A stretch of 64,000 bases of DNA from Alistipes senegalensis (GCA_023665275.1 JAMPEF010000001.1:40924-104923); one strand, 5' to 3'. Shown: positions 9,037 through 29,884, numbered from the stretch's first letter. Numbers and translations: made by a program. Notes: generated by a model not told the origin, from the letters alone.

Positions 9037-9049
9037 TATAATTTCTGTG

Positions 9050-9300
9050 TAAATTGTTCCATGTGGAACATTTTGTGTTTGTCGGTGCGGATTGTTCCAC
9101 GTGGAACATTTTGTGTTCGTTGGTGCGGATTGTTCCACGTGGAACATTTTGTGTTTGTCGGTGAGGATTGTTCCACGTGGAACATTTTATGTTTGTCGGT
9201 GAGGATTGTTCCACGTGGGACATTTTGTGTTTGTCGGTGCGGATTGTTCTACGTGGAACATTTTGTGTTCGTTGGTGCGGATTGTTCCACGTGGAACATT
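9050..9300. repeat. Tandem array 1: 7 copies of parS-like palindrome TGTTCCACGTGGAACA, period about 38 bp
   Basis: 16-mers start at 9056, 9094, 9132, 9170, 9208, 9246, 9284. Four are perfect. Three carry single central changes: CATGTG, CACGTGGG, TACGTG. Spacer GTGTTYGTYGGTGMGGAT is homogeneous. ORF-track ORFs 9014..9349 and 9061..9324 are repeat artefacts. Confidence 0.9.
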
Positions 9301-9354
9301 TTAAAATTTCCAGTAATATTATAAAATCTCCGTGAAATAATATTATCAAGCAAA

Positions 9355-9374
9355 TTGTTCCACGTGGAACATTA
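9355..9374. promoter_or_regulatory. Solitary parS-like palindrome immediately upstream of the spoVAD RBS
   Basis: ATTGTTCCACGTGGAACATT at 9355-9374. The spoVAD GGGAGG RBS starts 3 nt later. Confidence 0.55.
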
Positions 9375-9387
9375 AGGGAGGTTTTTT

Positions 9388-10398
9388 ATGGCTGAATACA
9401 TTTCACAGGGAGTTTTCATAATTTCAGATACAGTAAAAATTGAAAGTTATGCATCGGTAGTAGGTTCTAAAGAGGGTGAAGGAAACTTAGGAAAGTATTT
9501 CGACGAAATAATAGAAGACAGTCATTTTGGTAAAAGTTCGTGGGAAAAAGCAGAGAGCCGTTTTCAGCTTGAGGCTGTAAGCCTTGCGATACGCAAAGCA
9601 GGAATAACCAAAGAAGATATTGATATTATATGTTCCGGAGACTTGATTAATCAGTGTATCGGTTCGACTTATGGCTTGCGTGAACTGGAGATACCATTTC
9701 TAGGACTATACGGAGCTTGCTCTACTATGGCTGAAGGATTGCTTATATCATCACTGCTTACAGATAATAAAGTGGCAAAACGTGCTGTAGCAGTTACATC
9801 ATCGCATTTTTCGACAGCTGAAAGACAATTCAGATTTCCATTGTCATACGGCGGACAGCGTACACCTACTGCACAATGGACTTGCACAGCATCGGGTGCG
9901 GTGGTACTTTCCGACACCAACGGCACTATAAAAGTAGTAGGTGGCTGTATCGGAAGAATTACCGATATGGGAATAAATGATATAAATAATATGGGTAGTG
10001 CTATGGCTCCTGCTGCCGCTGGAACTATTCAGCGTTACCTTAATGCAACCGGAACTAATCCAGAAGATTATGACTTTATAGTTACCGGAGATTTAGGCAT
10101 GGTAGGCAGCAGACTACTGATTGAATTTTTACAGAAACAAGATATTGATATTTCTGTACAGCATCAGGATTGTGGTTGTCTGATTTTCGACAGCGAAAAA
10201 CAGGATACACATTGTGGTGGTTCGGGTTGTGGTTGTAGTGCAAGTGTCTTATGTGGATATTTTCTGCCTATGCTTGAAAACGGCACAGCTAAAAACATAC
10301 TGTTTATTGCAACAGGTGCATTGATGTCGCCCATGTCGCTACAGCAGGGTGAATCAATTCCGACAATTGCACATCTTGTACATTTAAGAAAGGACTGA
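9388..10398 (+). CDS. spoVAD: Stage V sporulation protein AD
   Basis: 336 aa. Collinear similarity to B. subtilis SpoVAD (thiolase-like fold): GACSTM, SSHFSTAERQFRFP, GSAMAPAAA, and the C-terminal SIPTIAH. Confidence 0.9.
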   Translation: MAEYISQGVFIISDTVKIESYASVVGSKEGEGNLGKYFDEIIEDSHFGKSSWEKAESRFQLEAVSLAIRKAGITKEDIDIICSGDLINQCIGSTYGLRELEIPFLGLYGACSTMAEGLLISSLLTDNKVAKRAVAVTSSHFSTAERQFRFPLSYGGQRTPTAQWTCTASGAVVLSDTNGTIKVVGGCIGRITDMGINDINNMGSAMAPAAAGTIQRYLNATGTNPEDYDFIVTGDLGMVGSRLLIEFLQKQDIDISVQHQDCGCLIFDSEKQDTHCGGSGCGCSASVLCGYFLPMLENGTAKNILFIATGALMSPMSLQQGESIPTIAHLVHLRKD

Positions 10399-10403
10399 AA
10401 AAA

Positions 10404-10769
10404 ATGATATTATGGGATTTGATAAAAGCTTTTCTGATAGGTGGTATCATATGTGCTATAGGACAGCTTTTAATTGACTATACAAAACTAACTCCGGCAA
10501 GAATACTTACAAGTTTTGTTGTTGCCGGAGTAGCGCTTTCCGCACTTGGAATATACAAACCACTTGTTGAATTTGCCGGAGCAGGTGCGTCCGTACCGCT
10601 TACGGGTTTCGGAAATCTTTTAGCGGAAGGTGTCCGAAAAGCCATTGACCGTGATGGTTTTTTAGGTGTATTTACCGGAGGACTTACGTCAGCGGCAGCC
10701 GGCGTGACTGTCGCATTACTTGCCGGACTTTCAGCGTCGGCGGTTTTCAAACAGAAAGACAAGAGTTAA
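10404..10769 (+). CDS. spoVAE: Stage V sporulation protein AE (SpoVAEb-type)
   Basis: 121 aa. IGGIICAIGQLLIDYTKLTPA and FAGAGASVPLTGFGN match the SpoVAC/SpoVAEb family. Length and N-terminus are closest to SpoVAEb. Confidence 0.75.
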   Translation: MILWDLIKAFLIGGIICAIGQLLIDYTKLTPARILTSFVVAGVALSALGIYKPLVEFAGAGASVPLTGFGNLLAEGVRKAIDRDGFLGVFTGGLTSAAAGVTVALLAGLSASAVFKQKDKS

Positions 10770-10770
10770 T

Positions 10771-10810
10771 TAAAAAAAGGCATTTCCGGTGCGGAAGTGC
10801 CTTCAATTTA
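10771..10810. terminator. Bidirectional hairpin terminator between spoVAE and the convergent lipoprotein gene
   Basis: aaggcatttccg-gtg-cggaagtgcctt, flanked by an A-run on one side and a T-rich run on the other. Confidence 0.5.
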
Positions 10811-11443
10811 TTTATTTATTTTTTCTGTCCAGTCAGTGTAAAGATGATTATTTCTTACAAGACTAAGTGCAGAAAGTGCATTTTCGTCATACGTCTTGTA
10901 TGATATACACTGATTTGCTCCGGTATTCATAATCCTGAACCAATTTCTTTTATCGTCTGGAATACAACAACTGTAATCATAATAAATGCTTTCAATAACA
11001 TCGGGTTCACACCCATCATCACGCAGACGGTCATAATCTTTGGCATCATAATTTATTCCGGAAATATATTCAGATAACTTTTGTGTATCTTCTGGAGAAA
11101 AATTTCCGATATTTTCGAGATGATCAGCAATTTCCCACGCAGACTCGTCATGACCGGAAAATTTCTTCACAAAATCATAATTATCGTCCCTGTAATTACT
11201 GTCCATAGTCCAGACAGTGCCGTCACTAAGTACCACAAAATAATACATAATATCTGTATCTGTATATTTTTCTTCCTGATAATTATGAAGAATAGTCACA
11301 AAAAACAGAACTTTATCCATATTACTTTCCGCTGAAATTTCCGGAGTGATTTCTTTTGTCGTATTTCCACAGGCTGTAAACATCATCATAACAAAAATCA
11401 GGAAAATATTTAATATTTTTCTGAACTTACACGCCATAGACAT
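10808..11443 (-). CDS. Putative lipoprotein (unknown function)
   Basis: N-terminal KFRK, hydrophobic run, FTAC lipobox. 211 aa. Overlaps the upstream ORF by about 34 nt, suggesting an operon. Confidence 0.55.
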   Translation of the reverse strand: MSMACKFRKILNIFLIFVMMMFTACGNTTKEITPEISAESNMDKVLFFVTILHNYQEEKYTDTDIMYYFVVLSDGTVWTMDSNYRDDNYDFVKKFSGHDESAWEIADHLENIGNFSPEDTQKLSEYISGINYDAKDYDRLRDDGCEPDVIESIYYDYSCCIPDDKRNWFRIMNTGANQCISYKTYDENALSALSLVRNNHLYTDWTEKINK

Positions 11444-11901
11444 TCACCGTCTTCACAGTTTACAACAACCCAGTCAAATTTTTTTGACATAATATAGAAA
11501 TCTGTTACAAAATATATTTCTGAAAAAGCCATCAATATTTCAGAAATTTCGCCCTCATATACCCATCCGTCTGCAACAATACCGAAATATTTTTTATTGT
11601 CTGAATAATCCGGAATAAGACTTTTTATTGAATTAATATCAGTGTCATCATAGTGTAAGCGTATTGTATCAGATGTCTTAAGATTTTTGCGAAAATTAAG
11701 CCATGCATATGACAAATCAATTTTTTCAGGTTCAAAATACCTTATATTCTTATCATACTCAAAAAATGTATAGTAAAATTTACGTATAATATTTTCATAT
11801 GAAAGTTTTGATACTTCATGAAACTTTGAACGGTCAATATTTTCTTCTTTTATAGTATTTTCAATTTCATTTCTTACTCTGTAACGTTCCTTTTGTGTCA
11901 T
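11410..11901 (-). CDS. Hypothetical cytoplasmic protein (start uncertain; the ORF track begins at a TTG at 11976)
   Basis: Long ORF with no recognisable motifs. Candidate ATG starts at 11961, 11949, 11910, 11901, none with a strong RBS. Confidence 0.4.
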   Translation of the reverse strand: MTQKERYRVRNEIENTIKEENIDRSKFHEVSKLSYENIIRKFYYTFFEYDKNIRYFEPEKIDLSYAWLNFRKNLKTSDTIRLHYDDTDINSIKSLIPDYSDNKKYFGIVADGWVYEGEISEILMAFSEIYFVTDFYIMSKKFDWVVVNCEDGECLWRVSSEKY

Positions 11902-12098
11902 ATGTAACCCCATTTGATTTAGTTTCCTTATTGTAAAATTTTCTATCATTATAACATACATAAAATCAGAAGTCAAGAAAAAATAAATATGTTATCTGTA
12001 TTTTAATATCAATATTGTACTATTACAACAGTTTATCCGATATAAATAATCATTATTTTATAATTTCCTACAAAAATAAATTTTTTTCGGTTTTTCTA

Positions 12099-12127
12099 TT
12101 GACTTTTTCAGAAACACGTGCTATAAT
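12099..12127 (+). promoter_or_regulatory. Consensus-like sigma-A promoter for the tRNA-Met-tRNA-Glu operon (TTGACT-17-TATAAT)
   Basis: TTGACT at 12099-12104, 17-nt spacer, TATAAT at 12122-12127. About 40 nt upstream of the tRNA 5' end. Confidence 0.55.
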
Positions 12128-12167
12128 AATAAAGTCGTAAGGCAGTAATAGCAACGACGTCAAATAT

Positions 12168-12244
12168 GGCGGCATAGCTCAGTTGGCTAGAGTACTCGGT
12201 TCATACCCGATTGGTCGTTGGTTCAAATCCTACTGCCGCTACCA
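12168..12244 (+). tRNA. tRNA-Met (anticodon CAT); could alternatively be tRNA-Ile2 (lysidine) or initiator
   Basis: Cloverleaf folded by hand: acceptor GGCGGCA/TGCCGCT, D-arm GCTCAGTTGGCTAGAGT, anticodon loop TTCATAC, T-arm GGTTCAAATCC, encoded CCA. Confidence 0.75.
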
Positions 12245-12252
12245 TTTAACAA

Positions 12253-12324
12253 GGCCCGTTGGTCAAGCGGTTAAGACATCGCCCTTTCACGGCGGAATCA
12301 TGGGTTCGATTCCCGTACGGGTCA
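12253..12324 (+). tRNA. tRNA-Glu (anticodon TTC)
   Basis: GGCCCGTTGGTCAAGCGGTTAAGACATCGCCCTTTCACGGCGG...GGGTTCGATTCCCGTACGGGTCA. Anticodon loop CTTTCAC. Typical tRNA-Glu sequence. ORF-track ORFs 12183..12371 and the 5' part of 12259..12840 are artefacts over these tRNAs. Confidence 0.85.
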
Positions 12325-12332
12325 CTTCAAAA

Positions 12333-12368
12333 ATCCACAAACTTAATGGTTTGTGGATTTTATTTTTA
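12333..12368 (+). terminator. Rho-independent terminator after the tRNA pair
   Basis: Perfect 10-bp stem atccacaaac/gtttgtggat with a 6-nt loop, followed by TTTTATTTTTAT. Confidence 0.7.
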
Positions 12369-12390
12369 TAAAATTTATAGAGGTAAAACA

Positions 12391-12840
12391 ATGGGACATG
12401 GTTATTGTTTTGATTGCAAAAAATGTCACTATGAATACGATGTATGTGTGGGTTCTTGTATGTTATTTTCTTATACATACAAGCAGATTGTAAATGAAAT
12501 AAAAAACGGTGTACATGGAAATAACTGGAAATATGTTTTTTCAAGTCGAAATGATATGGTTGTAAATGCTACAAAATATCTGTATATCTGCCAATGTGGT
12601 AACTGGTCAGTCGAACCTTCCCTTTCACTGTATGCCCCCAAAAATTCTAATAAACTCACTAAAACATATGTCATGGAATATGATTTAAAATCTGATTATT
12701 ATTGTATCATAAATTATATTCATATATGCAAAAAATGTGGTGCGGAAATGTATAAAACAGATATTACACATAAAACACTGCTCCCCTGCCCCAAATGTAA
12801 CAATATAAATCAGACATCAGGCATTATCAACTGGGATTAG
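12391..12840 (+). CDS. Cysteine-rich hypothetical protein with multiple CxxC pairs (putative zinc-ribbon protein)
   Basis: 149 aa from MGHGYCFDCKKCHYEY. Further pairs CQCGNW, CKKCGAE, CPKCNN. RBS AGAGGT 7 nt upstream. No family recognised. Confidence 0.55.
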   Translation: MGHGYCFDCKKCHYEYDVCVGSCMLFSYTYKQIVNEIKNGVHGNNWKYVFSSRNDMVVNATKYLYICQCGNWSVEPSLSLYAPKNSNKLTKTYVMEYDLKSDYYCIINYIHICKKCGAEMYKTDITHKTLLPCPKCNNINQTSGIINWD

Positions 12841-12904
12841 AATATTGACTTTAATTAAAGCAACTGTTATAACAAATTATAAAATAGTAATAAGGAGTTT
12901 TATA

Positions 12905-13939
12905 ATGAATATGCTTGACAAATACAAAGGTTGTCTTATCGGAGGTGCCGTCGGAGACGCACTCGGATATATTGTGGAATTTTTTCCTGAAAAGAAAATT
13001 TTCGGTCATTATGGTGAAAATGGTATAATAGAATACGAACTCAGAAATAACAAGGCAATTATATCAGATGATACTCAAATGACGCTTTTTACTGCAAACG
13101 GTCTTTTACTTGGTGCAAAAGACGGGTCATACATTCACTCAATATACGATTGTTATAAAGAATGGTTTGTAACTCAAAACTGTGAGTACAAAATAAAATT
13201 AAAATACCGTTCATGGCTTGTGGACATTCCGGAATTATGGGAACGACGTGCGCCAGGCTTTACGTGTATTAGTGCTATTTCTTCTGGTAAAATGGGTTCT
13301 GTAAGAAATCCCATAAACGACAGTAAAGGTTGTGGCGGTGTAATGCGTGTTGCACCTATTGGACTTTTCTTTAAGGATATAAGCAAAATATCACAAACTG
13401 ATATGATTGCAGCGGAAGCCTCTGCCATTACTCACGGTCACGAACTCGGCTATATACCATCTGCATGTTTCGTACATATTATAAACCTTATTTCACATAG
13501 TGATATTCCACTTAAAGATGCAGTTTCTGAAAGCATTTCCCATACAAAAAAACTTTTTAAAAATTGCAAACATATAGATTATTTCTGTCAACTTATGAAT
13601 AAAGCCTTGAAACTTTCCAGACAAAATATCAATGACCTTGACGCAATTCATGAACTTGGTGAAGGCTGGGTTGCAGAAGAAACTCTTTCTATAGCAGTTT
13701 ATTGTGCCTTGAAGTATGAAAATAACTTTGAAAAAGCTATTATTACATCTGTAAACCACAACGGCGACAGCGATTCTACTGGTGCAGTAACTGGAAATAT
13801 ACTCGGTTCTTATCTCGGAATGAATGCTATTCCTGAAAAATTCCTTGAAAATCTTGAAATTAAAGATGTTATTTCTGAAATTGCCTGTGACCTTTATAAT
13901 TATACACCCGAAAATATAAACCCTAAATATCTAAAATAA
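12905..13939 (+). CDS. ADP-ribosylglycohydrolase family protein (DraG/ARH-like)
   Basis: MNMLDKYKGCLIGGAVGDALGYIVEF and DDTQMTLFTANGLL are ARH-family N-terminal signatures. C-terminal Asp-rich NHNGDSDSTGAVTGNILG (metal site). TAAGGAG RBS. Confidence 0.8.
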   Translation: MNMLDKYKGCLIGGAVGDALGYIVEFFPEKKIFGHYGENGIIEYELRNNKAIISDDTQMTLFTANGLLLGAKDGSYIHSIYDCYKEWFVTQNCEYKIKLKYRSWLVDIPELWERRAPGFTCISAISSGKMGSVRNPINDSKGCGGVMRVAPIGLFFKDISKISQTDMIAAEASAITHGHELGYIPSACFVHIINLISHSDIPLKDAVSESISHTKKLFKNCKHIDYFCQLMNKALKLSRQNINDLDAIHELGEGWVAEETLSIAVYCALKYENNFEKAIITSVNHNGDSDSTGAVTGNILGSYLGMNAIPEKFLENLEIKDVISEIACDLYNYTPENINPKYLK

Positions 13940-13940
13940 A

Positions 13941-14288
13941 AATGTTCCACGTGGAACATTTTCAGGTTTTATACAAGCTGATTGTTCCACGTGGAACATT
14001 TTTCAAGTTTCGTACAAGCTGATTGTTCTACGTGGAACATTTTTCAAGTTTCGTACAGACCGATTGTTCCATGTGGAACATTTTTCAAGTTTCATACAGA
14101 CTGATTGTTCCACGTGGAACATTTTTCAAGTTTCGTACAGACCAATTGTTCCATGTGGAACATTTTTCAAGTTTCATACAGACTGATTGTTCCACGTGGA
14201 ACATTTTTCAAGTTTCGTACAGACTGATTGTTCCGCGTGGAACATTTTTCAAGTTTCGTACAAACCGATTGTTCCATGTGGAACATTT
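13941..14288. repeat. Tandem array 2: 9 copies of parS-like palindrome, period 41 bp
   Basis: 16-mers start at 13943, 13983, 14024, 14065, 14106, 14147, 14188, 14229, 14270. Four are perfect. The others have single central changes (TACGTG, CATGTG x3, CGCGTG). Spacer TTTTCAAGTTTCRTACAGACYGAT. ORF 14023..14367 is an artefact. Confidence 0.9.
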
Positions 14289-14366
14289 TATTTTTTCATT
14301 ACGTAATGAAAGGAATATTATTTTATTTTCCGGCATATTATTCTATGATATTTTGGAGGTGATGTA

Positions 14367-16415
14367 ATGGAAAACAATAAATATATTGTAGCACTTGCCG
14401 GAAATCCCAATGTTGGAAAGTCAACGGTATTTAATGCCCTAACAGGCATGAATCAGCATACTGGAAACTGGGCAGGGAAAACTGTTTCAAGTGCAGAAGG
14501 ATTCTTTGAATACAAAGATATGCATTTCACACTTGCGGATATTCCAGGAATGTATTCACTCCGCAACAGTTCCGCAGAAGAAACTACTGCAAGCGATTTC
14601 ATTTATTTTACGGAAACTGATGCTATTATTGTAGTATGTGATGCAACTTGTCTTGAAAGAAATCTAAATCTTGTCATACAAATAACAGAAGTATCTCCAA
14701 AAACTATAGTATGTGTAAATCTTCTTGACGAGGCGAGCGCAAAAGGCATAACCATAGACCTTGATTTATTAAGTCAGATTTTAGGCGTACACGTCGTGGG
14801 CATCACAGCACGTGACGGAAAAGGTCTTGACAAACTTCTTGAATGTCTTTACAACTGCATAAAAGAAGACGCATTACCAGTAAAGCTTCAACTTCCCCTG
14901 AATGACGACATAAAAAACGCCATAACAGATATTTCCCGTATAATAGAAAAAGATATACATAAACTTCCGCCGGAAACTGTCGCAATGCATATACTTGAAA
15001 ACAATACATCTTTCCTTGAAAAAACAGAAAAATATGAAAATATCCATTTTTCAGAGTTTCCGGAAATAGATAAAATAAAATATTCCATGCAAGAAAAAGG
15101 TTTCACGACAGAAAAAATATCTGACGAAATTATTTCCGCAACTATTAAAAAGGCTGCTGAAATTGTTGCAACAACTGTAAGTTATAAAAAATCCTCACCA
15201 TACGTCCGTGACCGTAAACTTGACAGAATATTTCTAAGCAGACGTGCAGGAATACCTGTAATGATTATTCTTTTCGGACTTATATTATGGATTACAATTG
15301 TCGGCGCTAACTATCCGTCGGATTTACTGGGAAAACTTCTTTTCGGACTTGGTGACATAATGTCTAAGGGACTTGCAAAAATAAACGCACCTGAATGGCT
15401 TGATGGTGTACTGATTCAGGGTATATATAAAGTTCTTGCATGGGTAGTATCCGTAATGCTGCCACCTATGGCGATATTTTTTCCTATGTTCACACTTCTG
15501 GAAGATTTAGGGTATCTGCCGAGAATAGCTTTCAATCTTGACCATTGTTTCCGATGTGCAAACGCTTGTGGAAAACAAGCCATAACTATGGCTATGGGAT
15601 TTGGTTGTAATGCTTGCGGAGTTACAGGGTGTCGGATTATAGATTCTCCACGTGAAAGACTTATTGCTATAATAACAAATAGTTTTGTTCCATGTAACGG
15701 ACGTTTTCCGACTATTATTATGATAATTACTATGTTTATTGTAATGTCCGGAAGTTTTCTGTCAACATTGATTCTGCTTGCTGTAATAATAGCCGGTGTT
15801 CTAATGACTCTTGTAATGTCGAAACTTCTTTCATGTACAATACTTAAAGGTGTGGCATCGTCGTTCACACTGGAGCTTCCACCATATCGTAAACCACAAT
15901 TCACAAAAGTACTTATACGTTCAATTTTCGACCGGACTATATTTGTACTTGCACGTGCATGTACTGCCGCTGCTCCGTGCGGACTTCTTATATGGATTTT
16001 TGCTAATGTCCATGTCGGAAATGGTACAATTCTATCTGTTGTTGCAGATTTCCTTAATCCTTTTGCCTGCCTTATGGGACTTGACGGTGTAATATTACTT
16101 GCCTTTATACTGGGATTTCCGGCAAATGAAATAGTATTCCCCATCATACTTATGACATATCTTGCACAGGGAAGCCTTGTCGAAATGTCAGATACTGTAC
16201 AGATTCATGAACTTCTAAAAGAACACGGCTGGAATATCACTACTGCCGTATGTATGATGATTTTCACACTTTTTCACTTTCCGTGTGCGACTACCTGTAT
16301 GACCATAAAAAAAGAAACAGGCAGTCTCAGATGGACTGCCCTAAGTTTTTTACTTCCTACCATTACAGGAATAGTTCTTTGTATGATTGTAAATGCTGTA
16401 AGTATGTTATTTTAG
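14367..16415 (+). CDS. feoB: Ferrous iron transport protein B
   Basis: 682 aa. N-terminal G-domain ALAGNPNVGKSTVFNALTG, followed by polytopic membrane domains with the GCNACG gate motif. No feoA ORF upstream; the repeat array sits there instead. Confidence 0.9.
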   Translation: MENNKYIVALAGNPNVGKSTVFNALTGMNQHTGNWAGKTVSSAEGFFEYKDMHFTLADIPGMYSLRNSSAEETTASDFIYFTETDAIIVVCDATCLERNLNLVIQITEVSPKTIVCVNLLDEASAKGITIDLDLLSQILGVHVVGITARDGKGLDKLLECLYNCIKEDALPVKLQLPLNDDIKNAITDISRIIEKDIHKLPPETVAMHILENNTSFLEKTEKYENIHFSEFPEIDKIKYSMQEKGFTTEKISDEIISATIKKAAEIVATTVSYKKSSPYVRDRKLDRIFLSRRAGIPVMIILFGLILWITIVGANYPSDLLGKLLFGLGDIMSKGLAKINAPEWLDGVLIQGIYKVLAWVVSVMLPPMAIFFPMFTLLEDLGYLPRIAFNLDHCFRCANACGKQAITMAMGFGCNACGVTGCRIIDSPRERLIAIITNSFVPCNGRFPTIIMIITMFIVMSGSFLSTLILLAVIIAGVLMTLVMSKLLSCTILKGVASSFTLELPPYRKPQFTKVLIRSIFDRTIFVLARACTAAAPCGLLIWIFANVHVGNGTILSVVADFLNPFACLMGLDGVILLAFILGFPANEIVFPIILMTYLAQGSLVEMSDTVQIHELLKEHGWNITTAVCMMIFTLFHFPCATTCMTIKKETGSLRWTALSFLLPTITGIVLCMIVNAVSMLF

Positions 16416-16996: not shown

Positions 16997-17063
16997 AAAT
17001 AAAAAACCTCCTTTTAAAAGAACGGAACAGCTATTTTTTTATATAAACTGTTCCGCATAAAAA

Positions 17064-17678: not shown

Positions 17679-17701
17679 TTCTGATTTCCTCCTTCATTAT
17701 A

Positions 17702-20293
17702 TTATTTTTTAGTAGCTACCTTGCGTATCATGTCAATCGGAATAACCATGAATGCAAGTACAATACAGATTAACCATGTCTTTATATTAAGTGGTTCAAC
17801 GCTAAGGAACTCACCACCAAACGTTACAAATACAAACTGTATCAGTAGCAATGCACCCATTACAATAAGGAAATTTTTATTTCTGCCTAAATGTTCAAAT
17901 ACGTTGATTTTTTCTGTACGTGCATTGAAACCATTAAATGTGATAGCCATCATGAACGTTGCAAAAAGTGCTGAACACAGATACGTATCGTCTACATCAC
18001 CAAAAATGTCACGCAGTGCCGGAACAAAACGTATACAGAGACAAAGTGCTGTAATATAAAGTCCGCTGATTACAAACTGCATCATCATTGACTTGCTGAC
18101 AATACTTTCATTACGTGGAATAGGTCTGTCTTTCATGTACTCCTTAAGCGCCGGCTCACTACCAAATGCAATAGCAGCGAGCGTATCCATAGCGAGATTT
18201 ACGAGAAGTAACTGAATAACTGTCATCATTGTAGGCTCACCAAGAAGCGGACCTATGAAACATGTCAGAACTGCCGCAACATTTACTGTAAGCTGGAATA
18301 TAAGGAACTTTCTTATACCTTTAAACATTGTACGTCCGTAAAGAATGGCTTTCGCAATTGAAGAGAAGTTATCATCAAGAATAGTTATATCGCCTGCCTC
18401 TTTAGCAACTTCCGTACCACTACCCATAGCAAATCCGACATCTGCTTTTTTAAGTGCCGGAGAATCGTTTACACCGTCGCCTGTCATACCTACTACGTAA
18501 TCAAGTTCCTGTGCGCAACGTACAAGACGACTCTTGTCAGTCGGCAACGCACGGGCAACAACTCTTAAATTAGGAATAACTTTTTTAAGTTCTTCGTCTG
18601 TCTTTTCATTAAGTTCAGCAGAAGTAAGTGCAACATCTTCCGGATTTCTGATAAGTCCTGCTTCCTTTGCAATAGCAACAGCAGTTTCCTTACGGTCGCC
18701 GGTAACCATTACAACCTGAATGCCGGCGTTCTGAACTTCCTTGATAGCATCAACCGCCTCTTTACGTACATTGTCTCTAATACAAAGAATACATACAAGC
18801 GTAAGGTCACCTTCATCACTGACACCATCACGCTTTGCAACGGCAAGAAGTCGCATTGAACGTCCTGCCTGTTCATCGATATATTTTGTTATTTCCTTGT
18901 GATTATTGAGAACGTTTATATTTCCGTTAGCGTCAACATACTGTGTACATCTCACAAGAAGTTTTTCAGGTGCACCCTTTACGTAAGTATAACTTGCACC
19001 ATTTCTTGAAATAGTAACACTGGACATCTTTTGTGTAGAATTGAATGGATTGAAGTTTGTAGCCTCGTCCTTGTTGATTTTGTTTTCTGCCTTGGCATCA
19101 ATCAGGAAATTCATTAAAGCACGGTCAGTACTATTACCACCGATAACGTTTCCATCACTTGCGGCGGCACTGTTATTAACGCCAGCACCTACAACAATAT
19201 CATCTATGAACTTTTCCGATGTATCAGAAAGTTTTGAAAATTTCTTTACATCACCTGTGATAAATTCAACTACTGAAAGTTTACCCTCTGTGATAGTACC
19301 TGTCTTGTCGCTATAAAGAAGGCTGAGACTTCCAGCAGTTTCAAGACCGTTTATCTTTCTTACAAGTACGTTGTCTTTTGACATCTTAAGGCTCTGGAAT
19401 GAAAGCAGTATAGATGTAAGCATCGGAAGACCTTCCGGAACTGCACATACTATGATAGTAACCGCTACTGTGATAGCATTCATTATAACCTTAATCCAGC
19501 CTATTGCAGAATCAGGTGCACCGTCGCCGATAACAGTCTGTAATATAGTACAGATGATAATTGCAACAGCTCCGATATATCCAAACATTGAAATCTGTTT
19601 TGCAAGTTTGGAAAGTTTAACCTGTAAAGGAGTTTCACGTGTATCTTCCTGAACTTCAAGGGCAAGCTCACCGAAAAGCGTCTTATCACCAACAACTTTT
19701 ACTTCCATATAAGCCTCACCACCGCATACGACTGTACCACGATAAGCATAATGTTTATTGAGCAGGTCTTTTATGTCGTATTTTTCGCCGGAATTTACAG
19801 GATGTTTTTCTGCCTCTTCGGTTTCGCCGTTTAGTGCCGCCTGGTCTACTTTTACTTCACCCTCGACAATTTCGCCATCTGCTGCAATTTTGTCGCCTGC
19901 CTGAAGATAGATAATATCCCCTACAACAACTTCGCTGACATGGATTTCACAAAGCTTGCCATCACGGATAACTTTAGCCATTTCCTTGGATTCTTCTTCT
20001 TCTTTGAGTGCAGAGGCTTTATTTTCCTGTTTATGTTCGCTGATTGAGGAAACACCATTTGCAATTAGTATCGCAATAAGAACACCAACCGGCTCGAACC
20101 ACTCCGCCTGACCCATAAAACATAATACAACCTGTACTACAAGTGCAACGATAAGAATCATAATCATAGGGTCTTTAAAACCTTCAAGAATTTTTTTCCA
20201 TAATGGGTCGGGGGGAATCTGAGTAAGATTATTGTCGCCATGTTTTTTACGACTTTCTTCAACCTCTTTTTTTGACAGTCCATTAAGATTCAT
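17702..20293 (-). CDS. Calcium-translocating P-type ATPase (second copy in window)
   Basis: DKTGTITEG, TGDGVNDSPALKKADVG, PEGLP. Start taken at MNLNG (ATG 20293, AAGGAG RBS) rather than the ORF-track start at 20428. Confidence 0.85.
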   Translation of the reverse strand: MNLNGLSKKEVEESRKKHGDNNLTQIPPDPLWKKILEGFKDPMIMILIVALVVQVVLCFMGQAEWFEPVGVLIAILIANGVSSISEHKQENKASALKEEEESKEMAKVIRDGKLCEIHVSEVVVGDIIYLQAGDKIAADGEIVEGEVKVDQAALNGETEEAEKHPVNSGEKYDIKDLLNKHYAYRGTVVCGGEAYMEVKVVGDKTLFGELALEVQEDTRETPLQVKLSKLAKQISMFGYIGAVAIIICTILQTVIGDGAPDSAIGWIKVIMNAITVAVTIIVCAVPEGLPMLTSILLSFQSLKMSKDNVLVRKINGLETAGSLSLLYSDKTGTITEGKLSVVEFITGDVKKFSKLSDTSEKFIDDIVVGAGVNNSAAASDGNVIGGNSTDRALMNFLIDAKAENKINKDEATNFNPFNSTQKMSSVTISRNGASYTYVKGAPEKLLVRCTQYVDANGNINVLNNHKEITKYIDEQAGRSMRLLAVAKRDGVSDEGDLTLVCILCIRDNVRKEAVDAIKEVQNAGIQVVMVTGDRKETAVAIAKEAGLIRNPEDVALTSAELNEKTDEELKKVIPNLRVVARALPTDKSRLVRCAQELDYVVGMTGDGVNDSPALKKADVGFAMGSGTEVAKEAGDITILDDNFSSIAKAILYGRTMFKGIRKFLIFQLTVNVAAVLTCFIGPLLGEPTMMTVIQLLLVNLAMDTLAAIAFGSEPALKEYMKDRPIPRNESIVSKSMMMQFVISGLYITALCLCIRFVPALRDIFGDVDDTYLCSALFATFMMAITFNGFNARTEKINVFEHLGRNKNFLIVMGALLLIQFVFVTFGGEFLSVEPLNIKTWLICIVLAFMVIPIDMIRKVATKK

Positions 20294-20557
20294 AGACATA
20301 TCTCCTTCTTTTGAATATATTTTTTCAGGTGCGCAAAAGCACACACTTATAGTTAATATTATACATTCCGGAGGGGCATTTGTCAATATCCGGAAACTGA
20401 AAATGTCGTAATTTAGCGAACCAAACAAATTATTATTATTCTATTTGTGAAAATTAACGTCACCTGAATTTTCATGACATACATATAATTGACTGCACTA
20501 AAAACAATATTCATATAATGCCATATCATGCCACAAAAAAGGATTATGATGTTACAG

Positions 20558-20577
20558 AATGTTCCACATGGAACATT
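20558..20577. promoter_or_regulatory. Degenerate parS-like site (AATGTTCCACATGGAACATT) in the shared upstream region of the ATPase operon and fprA
   Basis: One central transition (CACGTG to CACATG) breaks the palindrome. Confidence 0.4.
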
Positions 20578-20742
20578 TTCATTGTGGTAATTTTTTGTGG
20601 AAAATCAACATAAAAAATCTTATGGAAATATTCAGCGTTATTTATAATTCAGACATAAAAAATTTCCTGAAAAAGTCTTTTTTTCCGTGACGGAATATGT
20701 TATAATAGAAGTATTCCAAATATGAAAAGAGGTATTTTAATT

Positions 20743-21897
20743 ATGCATATCACAGATGATATTTTCAATGTCGGCGTCAACGCCCATAATGTTGACTTAT
20801 TCGAGGGACAGTATATCGTCCCTAACGGCATGGCTTATCACTCGTATGTAATCATGGACGAAAAAATAGCTGTACTTGATACGGTTGATGCGAATTTCTC
20901 TGACGAATGGCTCGCCAATATAAGAGAAGTTCTTGACGGACGTAATCCGGACTATCTGATAGTACAACACATGGAGTGTGACCACTCTGCAAACATAATG
21001 AACTTTATGAAAGAATTTCCGGAGACAACTATTGTCGGAAATGCAAAGACTTTCACAATGCTTGCAAACTTCTTTGAAGATACAGCAGAACTAAAAAAAC
21101 TTGTCGTAAAGGAAAATGATACACTTTCACTCGGAAAACATATACTTAATTTTGTATTCGCACCTATGGTACACTGGCCAGAAGTAATGTTCACTTACGA
21201 CAGCACCGAAAAAGTTCTTTTTTCAGCCGACGCTTTCGGAAAATTCGGGGCATCGGACGTTGAGGAAGACTGGGCTTGTGAGGCAAGACGTTATTATTTC
21301 GGAATTGTCGGAAAATACGGCGCACAAGTACAAACAGTTCTGAAAAAAGCCTCTGGACTGGATATACATATAATATGTCCGCTTCATGGAGTTGTGCTGA
21401 CAGAAAATCTCTCCTACTATCTCGGACTTTATAATACATGGTCTTCATACGAAGTTGAGAGTGACGGCGTAATGATTGCTTATACTTCCGTTTACGGAAA
21501 TACCAAGAAAGCCTGTGAAATTCTTGCGGACAAACTCACGGAAAAAGGCTGTAAGAAAGTTGTTCTGTGTGACCTTGCCCGTGAGGATATGGCAGAAGCT
21601 GTAGAAGACGCTTTCAGATACGGAAAAATTGTCCTTGCCTCTCCGACTTATAACGCTGATGTCTTCCCTTTCATGAAACACTTCATTCTTGCACTGACTG
21701 AAAGAAATTTCCAGAACCGCACAATAGGTATTATTGAAAACGGTTCGTGGGCTGTTACCGCCGGAAAAGTAATGCATGATATGCTGGCAAAATCAAAAAA
21801 CATCACATGGCTTGAAAATACTGTAAGCATAAAATCTGCTGTAAAATCTGAAAATCTGATACAGATTAAAAATATGTCTGAAGAATTAATGAAATAA
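20743..21897 (+). CDS. Flavodiiron protein (FprA-like A-type flavoprotein; metallo-beta-lactamase fold plus flavodoxin domain)
   Basis: HMECDHS diiron-ligand motif in the N-terminal lactamase-like domain. C-terminal flavodoxin-like domain (SVYGNTKKACE). About 385 aa. Confidence 0.8.
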   Translation: MHITDDIFNVGVNAHNVDLFEGQYIVPNGMAYHSYVIMDEKIAVLDTVDANFSDEWLANIREVLDGRNPDYLIVQHMECDHSANIMNFMKEFPETTIVGNAKTFTMLANFFEDTAELKKLVVKENDTLSLGKHILNFVFAPMVHWPEVMFTYDSTEKVLFSADAFGKFGASDVEEDWACEARRYYFGIVGKYGAQVQTVLKKASGLDIHIICPLHGVVLTENLSYYLGLYNTWSSYEVESDGVMIAYTSVYGNTKKACEILADKLTEKGCKKVVLCDLAREDMAEAVEDAFRYGKIVLASPTYNADVFPFMKHFILALTERNFQNRTIGIIENGSWAVTAGKVMHDMLAKSKNITWLENTVSIKSAVKSENLIQIKNMSEELMK

Positions 21898-21910
21898 TTT
21901 TTTGATGCTG

Positions 21911-21930
21911 AATGTTCCACGTGGAACATT
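21911..21930. promoter_or_regulatory. Solitary perfect 20-bp palindrome AATGTTCCACGTGGAACATT (parS-like) 13 bp after the fprA stop
   Basis: Exact 20-mer that is its own reverse complement. Confidence 0.55.
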
Positions 21931-21988
21931 TTCGGGAATGCATTAAAAACCGTCTGAAAAGTCATAATATCAGAAAGGAGGGCTTTTT

Positions 21989-22192
21989 ATGAAAATAACA
22001 TTAAATCCCGATAAAGAAGTAGTCGAAAAAATAAAAGAGGGTCTGAAACTGAAAGACGGTTACTGTCCGTGCCGCATTCCCCGTACACCAGAAAATAAAT
22101 GCATGTGCAAAGAGTTCAGGGAACAGATTGCAGACCCGAATTTTGAGGGATTCTGTCACTGCATGCTTTACTACAAATCAAAGGAGGAATAA
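21989..22192 (+). CDS. Ferredoxin-thioredoxin-reductase catalytic-subunit-like protein (FTR-like)
   Basis: 67 aa with CPC(R)...CMC...CHC motifs characteristic of the FTR catalytic subunit fold. AAGGAGGG RBS. Directly precedes trxA. Confidence 0.6.
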   Translation: MKITLNPDKEVVEKIKEGLKLKDGYCPCRIPRTPENKCMCKEFREQIADPNFEGFCHCMLYYKSKEE

Positions 22193-22197
22193 TTTTA

Positions 22198-22505
22198 TGG
22201 AAATCACTATCACTAAGGAAAATTTCGATGATGAAGTACGAAATTATAAGGGAACTGTCCTGCTGGATTTCTGGGCTGACTGGTGCGGACCTTGTATGAT
22301 GCTTTCACCGGCTATCTCGAAAATCGCCACTGAACTTGCCGGAAAAGTTAAAGTCGGAAAAGTTAATGTTGATGAACAGCCGGAACTTTCCGCAGCTTTC
22401 AGAGTGGAAAGTATTCCGTTACTTGTTGTCGTGAAAGACGGCGTTATACAAAAGCAATCTGTCGGAGTTATTCCAGAAAATCAGATACTCGAAATGCTTA
22501 AATAA
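22198..22505 (+). CDS. trxA: Thioredoxin
   Basis: WCGPC active site. 102 aa. AAGGAGG RBS. The ORF-track start at 22128 is over-extended. Confidence 0.9.
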
Positions 22506-22510
22506 AAAAA

Positions 22511-22548
22511 AGTCACGAAGGAAAAATTTTCTTCGTGACTTTTTTGTT
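22511..22548 (+). terminator. Rho-independent terminator after trxA
   Basis: agtcacgaaggaaaa/ttttccttcgtgact hairpin followed by TTTTTGTTT. Confidence 0.7.
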
Positions 22549-22593
22549 TACCAAAAACGAAATCCCACATAATATATAGTGAGGTGATTATTT

Positions 22594-22704
22594 ATGCTGA
22601 ATTTTCTTTTAGGTTCATTTTTCGGTGGTACTGTAGGAATGTTTGCAATGTGTCTGTGTACCGCCGCAAAGAATGCAGATGATTTTTTTGACTCCGAAAA
22701 ATAA
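22594..22704 (+). CDS. Possible small hydrophobic protein (36 aa; below the ORF-track cutoff)
   Basis: GAGGTGA RBS 7 nt upstream of the ATG. MLNFLLGSFFGGTVGMFAMCLCTAAKNADDFFDSEK. Sits between the trxA terminator and the convergent serS stop. Confidence 0.25.
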   Translation: MLNFLLGSFFGGTVGMFAMCLCTAAKNADDFFDSEK

Positions 22705-23997
22705 TTATTTCTTAACCGGAACTGCTATAACGTCCTTACGCATATAGTGACGGAGTGCCTCCGGAATTCTTATACTGCCATCTTCGTTGATGTTGTTTTC
22801 AAGGAATGCTATTAACATTCTCGGCGGTGCTACAACGGTATTATTGAGGGTATGTGCAAAATATTTGTTTCCTTCATCTGTCTTTACTCTTATTCCAAGA
22901 CGGCGAGCCTGTGCGTCACCAAGATTTGAACAGCTTCCGACTTCAAAATATTTCTGCTGTCTTGGTGACCACGCTTCAACGTCGATACTCTTGACTTTAA
23001 GGTCTGCCAAATCACCCGAACAACATTCAAGAGTACGGACAGGAATGTCAAGTGTACGGAAAAATTCAACTGTATAACTGTAGAGTTTATGAAACCAGTT
23101 CATACTTTCCTCCGGTTTGCAGACAACAACCATTTCCTGTTTCTCAAACTGGTGTATTCTGTAAACTCCCCTTTCCTCAATTCCACGTGAGCCGACTTCC
23201 TTACGGAAGCACGGTGAATAGCTTGTGAGAGCTTTCGGAAGTTCTTCTTCGGGAATGATATTATCAATAAATTTGCCAATCATGGAGTGTTCACTTGTAC
23301 CGATTAAATAAAGGTCTTCGCCTTCAATCTTGTACATCATGTTGCCCATTTCCTCAAAGCTCATTACACCAGTAACAACATCACTTCTAATCATAAAAGG
23401 CGGAATATAATATGTAAAACCTTTGTCAATCATGAAATCCCTTGCATAAGAAAGTATACACGACTGTAACTGTGCAATATCTCCGCAGAGATAATAAAAA
23501 CCACTGCCACTTGTCTTTCTTGAACTGTTAAGGTCAATACCGTTTAATTTTTCCATGATGTCGACATGGTGCGGAACTTCAAAATCAGGTACTGCCGGTT
23601 CGCCGAATTTTTCAACTTCAACGTTTTCACTGTCGTCCTTGCCAATCGGGACACTTTCGTCAATGATATTCGGGATAACAAGCATAATTTCATGAATATC
23701 AGCTTCCAACTTAACTTCAAGTTCTTCCATCTCTGTAAGCTTTTCACCGATTTCAATAACTTCCGCCTTTACTTTTTCAGCTTCGTCTTTCTGACCCTTA
23801 GCCATTAAACCGCCAATTTGCTTGCTCTTTACCTTACGCTGATTTCTCAGACTGTCACATTCAACTTTCGTTGCCCTGTACTGCCTGTCCAGTTCAACAA
23901 CCTTGTCTACAAGTTCAAGTTTTTCGTCCTGAAATTTCTTTTTAATGTTTTCCTTTACAATTTCCGGATTTGTACGGATTAATTTAATATCAATCAT
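22705..23997 (-). CDS. serS: Seryl-tRNA synthetase
   Basis: 430 aa. N-terminal coiled coil MIDIKLIRTNPE. Class II motifs (FRKE, GSRG). Confidence 0.95.
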   Translation of the reverse strand: MIDIKLIRTNPEIVKENIKKKFQDEKLELVDKVVELDRQYRATKVECDSLRNQRKVKSKQIGGLMAKGQKDEAEKVKAEVIEIGEKLTEMEELEVKLEADIHEIMLVIPNIIDESVPIGKDDSENVEVEKFGEPAVPDFEVPHHVDIMEKLNGIDLNSSRKTSGSGFYYLCGDIAQLQSCILSYARDFMIDKGFTYYIPPFMIRSDVVTGVMSFEEMGNMMYKIEGEDLYLIGTSEHSMIGKFIDNIIPEEELPKALTSYSPCFRKEVGSRGIEERGVYRIHQFEKQEMVVVCKPEESMNWFHKLYSYTVEFFRTLDIPVRTLECCSGDLADLKVKSIDVEAWSPRQQKYFEVGSCSNLGDAQARRLGIRVKTDEGNKYFAHTLNNTVVAPPRMLIAFLENNINEDGSIRIPEALRHYMRKDVIAVPVKK

Positions 23998-24012
23998 TTA
24001 TAAATACTCCTT

Positions 24013-24864
24013 TTATTCATAGTCCTTTGCGAGTTTTTCAGCAATTGTTTTCAAATCGTCCTTATCATAAAATTCAAGGACGAGCGAACCTTTTTCTCCG
24101 CTATGTTTCACCTTGACTTTACGTCCGAGACGCATATTTAATGCAATTTCCATTTCAGCAAAATAATTGTCGGCCATATCCCGTTCATGTTCTTTCTGAA
24201 ATGCATTGTCTCTTTTATGTATTTCATTTTCAAGCTGACGTACAGTCATTTTACCGTCGGAAGCCCTTTCAGCAAGTTCAGTAAGAAATTTTACATCTTC
24301 AATCACTGCAAGCAGTGCTTTTGCATGACCAATCGACAGACTGCCTGTTTCAAGCATATATAGCACCGTATCCGGAAGTGAAAGTATTCTTACAGCATTT
24401 GCAATTGCAGACCTTGAACGCCCTACCATTTTTGCGATTTGTTCCTGTGTCATTCCGTATTTTTCAATAAGGTCACAGTAACCGTTAGCTTCTTCAACCG
24501 GATTAAGATTCTCTCTTTGAAGATTTTCTATAACTGCAATCTGCATAGCCTGTATATCGGAAAGTTCACGTATATTAACCGGTACTTCATCAAGACCGAG
24601 CATTCTTGCGGCTCTCCAGCGTCTTTCGCCGGCGACAATCTGATAACCACCAATCGACAAAGGTCTGACAAGTATCGGCTGTAACATACCATGTTCACGG
24701 ATAGACGCCGCAAGAGACGTTATTGCCTCTTCACTGAAAACTTTTCGTGGTTGGTCACGATTAGGTTCTATTTCAGAAGTCCTTAATGTTTTTTTTACTT
24801 GTATTTCGCTTGTATTGTCACTGAAAAGACTATCAAGCCCAGCACCAAGCCCACCTATAGCCAT
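24013..24864 (-). CDS. spo0J: Chromosome partitioning protein ParB/Spo0J
   Basis: 283 aa. GERRWRAA ParB box. HTH MTQEQIAKMVGRSRSAIAN. Genomic context soj-spo0J. Confidence 0.9.
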   Translation of the reverse strand: MAIGGLGAGLDSLFSDNTSEIQVKKTLRTSEIEPNRDQPRKVFSEEAITSLAASIREHGMLQPILVRPLSIGGYQIVAGERRWRAARMLGLDEVPVNIRELSDIQAMQIAVIENLQRENLNPVEEANGYCDLIEKYGMTQEQIAKMVGRSRSAIANAVRILSLPDTVLYMLETGSLSIGHAKALLAVIEDVKFLTELAERASDGKMTVRQLENEIHKRDNAFQKEHERDMADNYFAEMEIALNMRLGRKVKVKHSGEKGSLVLEFYDKDDLKTIAEKLAKDYE

Positions 24865-24884
24865 ATTTCAACCTCTTTTCCGGA

Positions 24885-25694
24885 TTATTTCTTGTTGAAT
24901 GAAAAAATTCCCCTGAGTTTTTTCTTCGGGAGTTCGAGAGGCTCACCGAGAAGTTCATGTCCAAGAAGTTCATAAGCCTCCGCACCCTTTGAAGACTTGT
25001 CATAATACATAACAGGCTTGCCATGACTTGGTGCTTCTGAAAGACGTACATTTCTTGGTATCTTTGTTTTGAAAATTTTATCAGGGAAATACTTTTCCAC
25101 TTCTGCAACTACATCATTGGCGACATTAAGTCTTCCATCAAACATAGTGAAAACAATTCCCTCAATATTAAGTACGGGATTATAATTCGTCTTAACAATC
25201 TTTATCGTATTGACAAGCTGTGAAAGTCCTTCCAGTGCGAAAAACTCTGCAAGCATCGGGACTATCACCGTATCACATGCAACGAGTGCATTTATTGTGA
25301 TAAGACCAAGTGCCGGTGGACAGTCAATAAATATATAATCATAGTCTTCACGACAAGTAAGCGTCTGCATTTTTAGACGTTTCATTCTGTTCTCAAAGTT
25401 TATAAGTTCTATTTCGCAACCGGCAAGAGATTCTGTAGCCGGAACTATTGATACATTGCTGAAATCAGTTCCTATAACAGCATCCTGAATCCTTATTTTA
25501 CCAGTCAAGACATCATATGTCGAGGCACTGGCGGACTTTTTCTTAACCCCAAAAGCAGTAGTAGTATTGCCTTGCGGGTCTGAATCAATACAAAGAACCT
25601 TAAATCCCCTTGAACCAAGATAAGCAGCAAGATTTACGGCTGTAGTAGATTTTCCGACGCCGCCTTTTTGATTTGCCACTGCAATTATTTTGCC
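24885..25694 (-). CDS. soj: Chromosome partitioning ATPase ParA/Soj
   Basis: MGKIIAVANQKGGVGKSTT deviant Walker A. Start set at MGKII (25694). The ORF-track start at 25715 is over-extended. Confidence 0.9.
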   Translation of the reverse strand, partial: GKIIAVANQKGGVGKSTTAVNLAAYLGSRGFKVLCIDSDPQGNTTTAFGVKKKSASASTYDVLTGKIRIQDAVIGTDFSNVSIVPATESLAGCEIELINFENRMKRLKMQTLTCREDYDYIFIDCPPALGLITINALVACDTVIVPMLAEFFALEGLSQLVNTIKIVKTNYNPVLNIEGIVFTMFDGRLNVANDVVAEVEKYFPDKIFKTKIPRNVRLSEAPSHGKPVMYYDKSSKGAEAYELLGHELLGEPLELPKKKLRGIFSFNKK

Positions 25695-25788
25695 CATGGT
25701 ATTCATTCCTTTCATTTTTTATATTTAATATTATAGCACCTTTTAAACGCTTTGTAAATAGTAGTTGTACAATTTTTATACTTATCCG

Positions 25789-26270
25789 AATGTTCCACGT
25801 GGAACATTTTCATGGCACAGACTTTTTATTCTTAATTGTTCCACGTGGAACATTTTTCATGCACAGACTTTTTATTCTTAATTGTTCCACGTGGAACATT
25901 TTCATGGCACAGACTTTTTATTCTTAATTGTTCCACGTGGAACATTTTCATGGCACAGACTTTTTATTCTTAATTGTTCCACGTGGAACATTTTTCATGA
26001 CACAGACTTTTTATTTCTGATTGTTCCACGTGGAACATTTTTCATGCACAGACTTTTTATTCTTAATTGTTCCACGTGGAACATTTTCATGGCACAGACT
26101 TTTTATTCTTAATTGTTCCACGTGGAACATTTTCATGGCACAGACTTTTTATTCTTAATTGTTCCACGTGGAACATTTTTCATGACACAGACTTTTTATT
26201 TCTGATTGTTCCACGTGGAACATTTTCATGACACAGACTTTTTATTCTTAATTGTTCCACGTGGAACATT
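25789..26270. repeat. Tandem array 3: 11 perfect copies of parS-like palindrome, period about 46 bp, filling the soj-noc intergenic region
   Basis: 16-mers start at 25791, 25837, 25883, 25928, 25974, 26021, 26067, 26113, 26159, 26206, 26252. All are exact TGTTCCACGTGGAACA. Spacer TTTTCATGRCACAGACTTTTTATTYYTRAT. ORFs 25673..25927 and 25882..26112 are artefacts. Confidence 0.9.
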
Positions 26271-26311
26271 AAAAAAGTCCCACATGAAAAGACTTCATGC
26301 GGAACTTTTTA

Positions 26312-29864: not shown

Positions 29865-29884
29865 AATGTTCCACGTGGAACATT
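29865..29884. promoter_or_regulatory. Solitary perfect 20-bp parS-like palindrome in the 33-bp mnmE-mnmG spacer (overlaps the mnmE stop codon)
   Basis: AATGTTCCACGTGGAACATT exact. Confidence 0.55.

Follow-up and report, generated by a model that had tools for sequence, protein, structure and literature searches.

Why would a bacterial chromosome carry 32 copies of its centromere site to one side of the replication origin, most of them packed head to tail? The question is raised by a stretch of 64,000 nucleotides deposited under Alistipes senegalensis (GCA_023665275.1, JAMPEF010000001.1:40924-104923; the whole of this 64-kb stretch is referred to as the window), in which a 16-bp palindrome, parS, recurs in three tandem arrays in the region of soj and spo0J, the genes encoding the ParA and ParB proteins. 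Sites of this kind belong to the ParABS system: ParB dimers bound to cytidine triphosphate (CTP) close as clamps at parS, slide off it and are replaced, and the ParB-rich zone created in this way is moved by ParA and loads SMC. The textbook contrast is between plasmid centromeres, which are tandem repeats, and chromosomal parS sites, which are few and either scattered or loosely clustered. The arrays described here look like the former and have the sequence of the latter. With a probability of about 0.8, they are chromosomal parS clusters, i.e., sites for the CTP-dependent loading of ParB (Spo0J) clamps, which would have arisen by local tandem amplification of a unit consisting of parS and its spacer. 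This reading was reached from sequence comparisons.

Number and arrangement of the parS sites

The window has 23 exact copies of TGTTCCACGTGGAACA and, at two mismatches or fewer, 32 sites, compared with 0.01 expected from 100 dinucleotide-preserving shuffles; the 32 consist of the 23 exact copies and nine with one mismatch, and none requires more than one. The sites match the 16-bp palindromic consensus of chromosomal parS, tGTTNCACGTGNAACa, with agreement at all 16 positions. The assignment of the motif to parS, made in a first-pass annotation of this DNA, is borne out, and the type is the chromosomal one. The palindrome is one base away from the spo0J site of Bacillus subtilis.

Three short-period tandem arrays contain 27 of the 32 sites (7, 9 and 11 sites, respectively), and the remaining five are solitary. 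Tandem Repeats Finder delimits array 1 at 9053-9302 (period 38, 6.6 copies), array 2 at 13943-14289 (period 41, 8.5 copies) and array 3 at 25791-26270 (period 46, 10.4 copies). All three arrays are intergenic, and a single site (4721, in hydF) lies within coding sequence. The periods, copy numbers, coordinates, five solitary copies and total of 32 that the first-pass annotation had given were all reproduced. Every site lies between 4.7 and 29.9 kb of the window, to the left of dnaA and oriC, and a scan of the stretch from 30 to 64 kb found no parS site.

The ParB encoded beside the arrays

If the palindrome is a parS site, the protein expected to bind it is ParB, which is encoded 1 kb from array 3. 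The residues of this ParB at the positions equivalent to R173, T179, A184 and G201 of Caulobacter ParB are R, A, S and G, respectively. According to Jalal et al. (PMC7383237), R173 and G201 do not vary among ParB orthologs and make contact with parS, whereas Noc, which has Q, K, K and R, prefers the Noc-binding site (NBS). The sites of the window differ by one terminal base from the Myxococcus xanthus consensus TGTTCCACGTGGAACG, a sequence bound in vitro by the ParB of that species (PMC3899335). The prediction that the adjacent ParB binds the arrays is well supported, because this ParB is canonical (both in its GERRWRA box and in the R and G that contact parS) and the paralog encoded on the other side of array 3 is of the NBS type.

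That paralog resembles Noc, although it scores below the NCBIfam cut-off for Noc (251 versus 315 bits). Having Q, K, R and R at the four specificity positions, it is predicted not to bind the parS sites of the window, and with GEKYLKA replacing GERRWRA it may not bind CTP in the manner of B. subtilis Noc. The array sites carry the bases specific for parS, not those of NBS, and a search of the window for NBS-like sites (palindrome ATTTCCCGGGAAAT) gave one match against 0.44 expected, i.e., no enrichment.

The N-terminal region of the ParB has the motif GLGAGL, and its first 23 residues include neither Lys nor Arg. In model ParBs the N-terminal motif is LG(R/K)GL, the basic residue of which stimulates the ATPase activity of ParA. 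GLGAGL is common to 99 of the 120 closest ParB homologs; in the rest, the position of the basic residue is taken by S, L or T. The true start of soj is probably a few codons inside the open reading frame (ORF) listed in Table 1, since the genes of relatives encode 270 amino acids.

Turnover of the arrays among relatives

Relatives were obtained via homologs of ParB and FeoB and by a metagenome scan. In 58 Ruminococcus metagenome relatives, whose ParBs are 54-74% identical to that of the window, the spacer between noc and soj contains parS in 58 of 58 cases: one site in 8, two in 36, three in 10, four in 3 and five in 1. Thus, multi-copy parS upstream of soj is found in 50 of the 58. Neighbouring sites are 24-53 bp apart, without a phase preference, and immediately downstream of them is the soj promoter (TATTTACA...TGATATAAT), which is conserved.

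In closer relatives, the positions of the three arrays hold few sites or many. L121, with a ParB 88% identical, has two sites, 41 bp apart, at the position where array 3 of the window has 11. In L222 and L223, there are 0 or 1 site at the array 1 position and 2 or 1 sites at the array 2 position. L221 has about 97% nucleotide identity to the window over 12.3 kb; its array 2 has five units compared with nine in the window, with spacers of the same family, and its array 3 has 10-11 units with a strain-specific spacer. The array 3 spacers are 93% identical to each other within the window and 91% within L221, but 79% between the two strains, which is the mark of concerted evolution. In a sister lineage (L122, L226 and L228; ParB 90-92% identical), the noc-soj spacer has 51-52-bp units in 5 to at least 8 copies, and the position of the single site 21913 of the window is occupied by a separate array of 46-bp period with 4, 5 or at least 9 copies. 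The short-read contigs or scaffolds of L122, L123, L226, L227 and L229 end, or have N gaps, exactly at the parS arrays, so that copy numbers read from assemblies of this kind are minimum values. Positions 404-12220 of the window, including the seven copies of array 1, are matched with 100% identity by L225 (GCA_023666785.1), an independent public contig. Both comparisons with relatives that the first-pass annotation had proposed came out in its favour: single sites or doublets are present at syntenic positions (L121, L222 and L223), and copy number differs between strains (array 2).

The internal order of the units records how the arrays grew. The spacers of array 3 occur in the order a b a a c b a a c d, a duplication of a four-unit block (185 bp); those of array 1 also contain a block duplication (a b c d a b), and array 2 has a higher-order repeat of two units (82 bp). 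Mutated cores were duplicated together with their own spacers. Within one array the spacers are 88-93% identical, as expected from the earlier claim that each array has its own internally homogeneous spacer, and between arrays they are 47-62% identical. The latter value does not differ significantly from shuffled controls (50-53%), so the test gave no sign that the spacers of the three arrays descend from one another or from one source; since the spacers are not alike, the amplifications were independent. Taken together, the sequences show that parS sites already present have been amplified in tandem, locally and independently of one another, and that the process is still going on, at no fewer than four loci in the species complex.

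Cores, spacers and selection

The first-pass annotation had described the palindrome as invariant and had taken this as an argument for selection. Neither statement holds for arrays 1 and 2. One mismatch is present in nine of the 32 sites, i.e., in 3/7 cores of array 1, 5/9 of array 2, 0/11 of array 3 and 1/5 solitary sites. Counted as variable columns, the cores of arrays 1 and 2 (3/16) are about as variable as the corresponding spacers (4/22 and approximately 5/25). In array 3 the core has 0/16 variable columns and the spacer 7/31, a contrast that is only suggestive because of the block duplications. Constraint does look to act on having more than one parS upstream of soj, as in 50 of the 58 relatives.

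Every mismatch in the nine variant cores is a transition, and five of the nine are at the central CG. In these five the CpG has undergone a change of C to T or of G to A (CACGTG has become CATGTG or CACATG), which would fit deamination of a methylated cytosine.

The setting near the replication origin

The gene content of the window is that of the replication-origin region of a sporulating, anaerobic Firmicute, and the best matches for its ParB and FeoB are in Ruminococcus sp. and R. flavefaciens metagenome-assembled genomes from rumen or gut. The minus strand encodes spo0J, soj, the Noc-like paralog, rsmG, mnmG, mnmE, jag, yidC and rnpA; next, on the plus strand, are dnaA, a 2-kb spacer of about 25% GC, dnaN, recF, gyrB and gyrA. 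Cumulative GC skew is lowest at 34-38 kb. A search of the window for DnaA boxes of the Escherichia coli type (TTATCCACA, at most one mismatch) revealed neither enrichment nor a cluster, including in the dnaA-dnaN spacer. The placement of oriC in this spacer is consequently inferred from the gene order (rnpA-rpmH/dnaA-dnaN-recF-gyrBA), the GC-skew minimum and the AT-rich spacer itself. The spacer also holds small tandem repeats at 36540-36591 and 37568-37643. The arrays would thus be approximately 10, 21 and 26 kb to one side of oriC. All parS sites are 5-30 kb from dnaA and the GC-skew minimum and, as the first-pass annotation had noted, close to soj-spo0J and a Noc-type paralog. The features are listed in Table 1.

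Table 1. Positions in the window of the parS sites and of the genes and signals around them
Feature	Position	Strand	Description
Solitary parS	4721..4736		Exact; within hydF coding sequence; also in L225
Array 1	9055..9298		7 parS, 38-bp period, 4 exact and 3 one-mismatch; between Ca-ATPase gene (ends 9036) and spoVAD
Array 1 spacer			TTTTGTGTTTGTCGGTGCGGAT; spacer types a b c d a b
Solitary parS	9356..9371		Exact; 16 bp upstream of spoVAD start codon, immediately ahead of its ribosome-binding site
Array 2	13943..14285		9 parS, 41-bp period, 4 exact and 5 one-mismatch
Array 2 flanks			DraG-like ADP-ribosylglycohydrolase gene (ends 13939) and feoB (starts 14367)
Solitary parS	20560..20575		One mismatch (CACATG); intergenic
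Solitary parS	21913..21928		Exact; 16 bp past flavoprotein (ODP) gene
parB/spo0J	24013..24864	−	GERRWRA CTP-binding box; R/A/S/G specificity residues (parS type)
soj/parA	24885..25715	−	ParA-family ATPase
soj-spo0J promoter	25730..25758	−	TTTACA-17-TATAAT, extended TG; near-consensus; kept in relatives
Array 3	25791..26268		11 exact parS, 46/47-bp period; between noc terminator and soj promoter
noc terminator	26277..26310	−	Hairpin and T run; arms resemble a split parS (GTTCCGCATGAA...TTCATGTGGGAC); read from sequence
Noc-like ParB paralog	26312..27127	−	Q/K/R/R specificity residues (NBS type); degenerate N-terminal box GEKYLKA
Solitary parS	29867..29882		Exact; mnmE-mnmG spacer; position kept across most relatives
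dnaA and spacer	35004..38501	+	dnaA 35004-36431, then 2-kb spacer of about 25% GC (36432-38501) before dnaN

From the -35 hexamer of the soj promoter it is 33 bp upstream to the start of array 3, and because the array adjoins this promoter, autoregulation of soj-spo0J via array 3 is plausible. At its other end is the noc terminator, the hairpin of which is assembled from parS-like half-sites (GTTCCACATGAA...TTCATGTGGAAC) in the window (L121, L122, L126 and L228 were also examined). The spacer of array 3 resembles one arm of the terminator, the units of array 3 and of the array in L126 look like parS plus one terminator arm, and in L121 a parS arm is itself the stem of the terminator.

Among the core genes near the arrays are small accessory genes (approximately 5955-6314 and 10808-11976), including a PemK-family toxin and Imm51/DUF6756 immunity-like genes. 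In L222 and L223 a GH9 cellulase gene is situated between spoVAE and the DraG-like gene, where the window has no ORF of that size.

How the arrays may have arisen and what they may do

The following sequence of events is proposed. The ancestor of this Ruminococcus clade would have had a doublet or triplet of parS upstream of the soj-spo0J promoter, together with single sites scattered in nearby intergenic spacers. In the lineage of the window, three of these positions would have expanded to 7, 9 and 11 copies by slippage or unequal recombination, including the duplication of two-unit and four-unit blocks, and the arrays would still be changing in copy number while being homogenised within each strain. 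Each intact copy would then be an independent loading gate for ParB, and 7-11 adjacent gates would raise the flux and the local density of ParB. The outcome would be a stronger partition and SMC-loading complex approximately 10-28 kb to the left of oriC, and array 3 would set ParB immediately upstream of the promoter from which its own operon is transcribed. Another role suggested in the first-pass annotation, that of a sink for ParB, is weak as an idea, because by a general estimate 32 sites would bind few dimers, a small share of the ParB pool of a typical cell. An effect of site number on ParB function has been measured in vitro with B. subtilis ParB, for which the force of condensation rose as parS sites became more numerous, at 7, 13 and 26 sites (PMC8299390).

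Several observations weigh against this explanation. In arrays 1 and 2, 8/16 cores are mutated (five at the central CG) and the cores are conserved no better than the spacers, so selection on individual copies is not evident. Units in relatives are anything between 24 and 55 bp long, without helical phasing, and this speaks against a higher-order, multi-dimer complex of exact construction. Strains that are nearly identical have different copy numbers, which means that no one number is needed. The restriction of parS to the origin region was seen within the window and 20-kb pieces of relatives, and the occupancy of the arrays by ParB is predicted from residues and motif. The same observations bear on the chief rival account of how the extra copies arose and are kept, i.e., that the arrays are neutral minisatellites, unstable expansions seeded at a palindromic parS by slippage or template switching, to which ParB may bind but in which the extra copies are not selected. 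Such neutral expansion is possible, though on the unlikely side. It would account for the variation in copy number and presence among close relatives and loci, for the decay of cores as fast as spacers in arrays 1 and 2 and the duplication of mutated cores, and for the free unit length; moreover, a single strand of an array is strongly self-complementary (folding, z = -14), which would favour slippage, although folding of this kind indicates self-complementarity alone and says nothing about function. Neutrality is less easily reconciled with the 11/11 perfect cores of array 3 beside spacers with 7/31 variable columns, with arrays having arisen repeatedly at parS (four loci in the species complex), or with the recurrence of multi-copy parS, in 50/58 relatives upstream of soj and in many phyla beside parAB, which suggests that more than one site upstream of soj is favoured. 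Neutral expansion does not conflict with ParB binding, and the extra copies may be either selected or just tolerated.

Could the arrays have a role other than ParB loading, or be no part of the chromosome? It is unlikely that they are transcriptional elements, in which parS followed by TTTT would form hairpin terminators, or ParB-bound sites would form roadblocks, that insulate or terminate operons or regulate soj-spo0J. A terminator scan flags 9/11 units of array 3 on the plus strand, compared with 0.5 expected, arrays 1 and 2 and the site at 21913 start 4-19 bp past plus-strand genes, array 3 abuts the soj promoter, and the noc terminator is itself parS-like. However, the stem has just 6 bp with three G-C pairs, the flanking genes of array 3 are read from the other strand than the one with the T run (and noc is already provided with a terminator), a single terminator would suffice where there are 7-11 copies, and a terminator does not need identity to parS over 16 bp. 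Binding of the palindrome mainly by the Noc-like paralog, or by a regulator that recognises CACGTG, instead of by ParB, has in its favour that a second gene of the ParB family adjoins array 3 and that the core contains CACGTG; it is very unlikely, given the NBS-type residues of the paralog, the parS bases of the sites (16/16 positions fit the consensus) and the single NBS-like match against 0.44 expected. The repeat-and-spacer appearance, and the frequent breaks of short-read contigs at the arrays in relatives (L123 and L226, with N gaps in L122), could also indicate an assembly artefact or foreign DNA, i.e., the centromere of an integrated plasmid, a REP/MITE family or an array of the CRISPR kind. 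This is extremely improbable: array 1 is identical in the independent contig L225, homologous arrays are present in several assemblies, and the neighbours are housekeeping and sporulation genes in the order seen in relatives. As to the individual candidates, a BLAST search of array 3 against the plasmids of PLSDB gave no match, which together with the chromosomal parS motif and the syntenic housekeeping genes rules out an integrated plasmid centromere. A CRISPR array is ruled out by spacers that are alike within an array (88-93%) and by flanking genes that include no cas gene, and a dispersed REP/MITE family by spacers that differ between arrays (47-62%, compared with 50-53% when shuffled).

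Comparison with known parS systems

The window shares with other chromosomal parS systems (B. subtilis Spo0J/parS; the survey of Livny et al. 2007) the family of 16-bp palindromes, the proximity to the origin, the position beside soj-spo0J, and a ParB with a canonical CTP box and residues of the parS type. It differs from the systems in that survey in having 27 of its 32 sites in three tandem arrays of short period.

The layout has a counterpart in a plasmid centromere. sopC of the F plasmid consists of 12 x 43 bp, each repeat with a 16-bp inverted repeat (PMC3177203), and the resemblance of the window to sopC, pointed out in the first-pass annotation, is real: a 16-bp palindrome bound, or predicted to be bound, by a protein of the ParB family recurs in direct tandem repeats every 38-46 bp (38, 41 and 46 bp in the three arrays). 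Centromeres of the sopC type have 3-17 copies, some with degenerate cores, and variable copy number and degenerate cores are also found in the window. Specific to sopC are its binding sequence TGGGACCACGGTCCCA, its restriction to plasmids of enterobacteria, its single locus and its unit of 43-45 bp. The window, in contrast, has the chromosomal parS sequence at several loci, no motif of the SopB type on a plasmid beside sopAB, and a unit length that is free rather than conserved (24-55 bp among relatives at homologous loci).

Among chromosomes, M. xanthus has 22 parS sites in approximately 3 kb, 4 kb upstream of parA (PMC3899335). Both there and in the window, many near-identical sites are packed near parAB and the origin, and ParB bound the M. 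xanthus cluster in vitro. The M. xanthus sites form one cluster with an average spacing of approximately 140 bp, whereas those of the window are 38-46 bp apart, head to tail, in three arrays, in a Firmicute, and between-strain differences in copy number are documented for the group to which the window belongs.

Tandem parS is also not rare. In Caulobacter, "tandem parS sequences" have been noted next to parAB (PMC4368675). When one genome per species was scanned for three parS separated by spacers of 15-45 bp, tandem triplets or longer arrays turned up in at least 120 species-level genomes from many phyla (at least 120 loci, a lower bound). Collinsella (3 x 39 bp), Lachnospiraceae, Streptococcus, Acidobacteriota, Cupriavidus, Streptomyces and Parcubacteria are among the matches listed; the source genome of the window is not. 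The 120 matches listed comprise 106 loci with three copies, nine with four, four with five and one with seven, and in 79 of the 120 the 8-kb piece also contains a ParA or ParB homolog, the median distance being 139 bp. These triplets beside parAB have the same architecture as the window at lower copy number, the largest having seven copies among the matches listed, compared with 7, 9 and 11 in the window. The earlier annotation thus overrated how exceptional the arrangement is, tandem parS being present in at least 120 species, mostly beside parAB, and M. xanthus having 22 sites in 3 kb. The window is an extreme and rapidly evolving example, and the largest case among the loci compared here, of a widespread but little-noticed arrangement, and not a new kind of element. 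In a literature search, no paper was found that deals with parS in Ruminococcus or with comparable parS arrays occurring naturally on a chromosome.

Among the matches listed, triplets mostly lie no more than a few hundred base pairs from parA or parB, and the 3 x 39-bp triplet occurs in dozens of Collinsella genomes. L040 (from uncultured Bacilli) has seven copies with a period of 55 bp, and three triplets are found apart from one another in L014 (Parcubacteria). In a scan of viral contigs, 15 IMG/VR contigs had at least three tandem parS of the chromosomal type, and a Soj or ParB homolog was detected nearby in one of them.

Implications for the chromosomal centromere

The window, and the triplets beside parAB in at least 120 species, show that chromosomes use tandem parS too. 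A more speculative idea, and a rather doubtful one, is that the chromosomal centromere of this Ruminococcus group behaves in the manner of a satellite, i.e., that parS seeds arrays that expand, contract and homogenise, at no fewer than four loci. On this view the number of copies would evolve rapidly and act as a dial that sets ParB loading, SMC recruitment and soj-spo0J autoregulation, and it might compensate for a ParB whose GLGAGL motif lacks the usual basic residue.

In practical terms, parS arrays break short-read assemblies at the origin region. In this one clade from gut and rumen, the copy number of parS turns over quickly between strains, providing a natural series of 1, 2, 3, 5, 9 and 11 sites at the same position that is usable for studying effects of parS number. 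Such a series could address how ParB loading, the size of the partition complex, SMC loading and expression of the par operon depend on the number of parS sites. The main value of the locus is this series of copy numbers, together with the evidence for rapid and concerted turnover of a bacterial chromosomal centromere.

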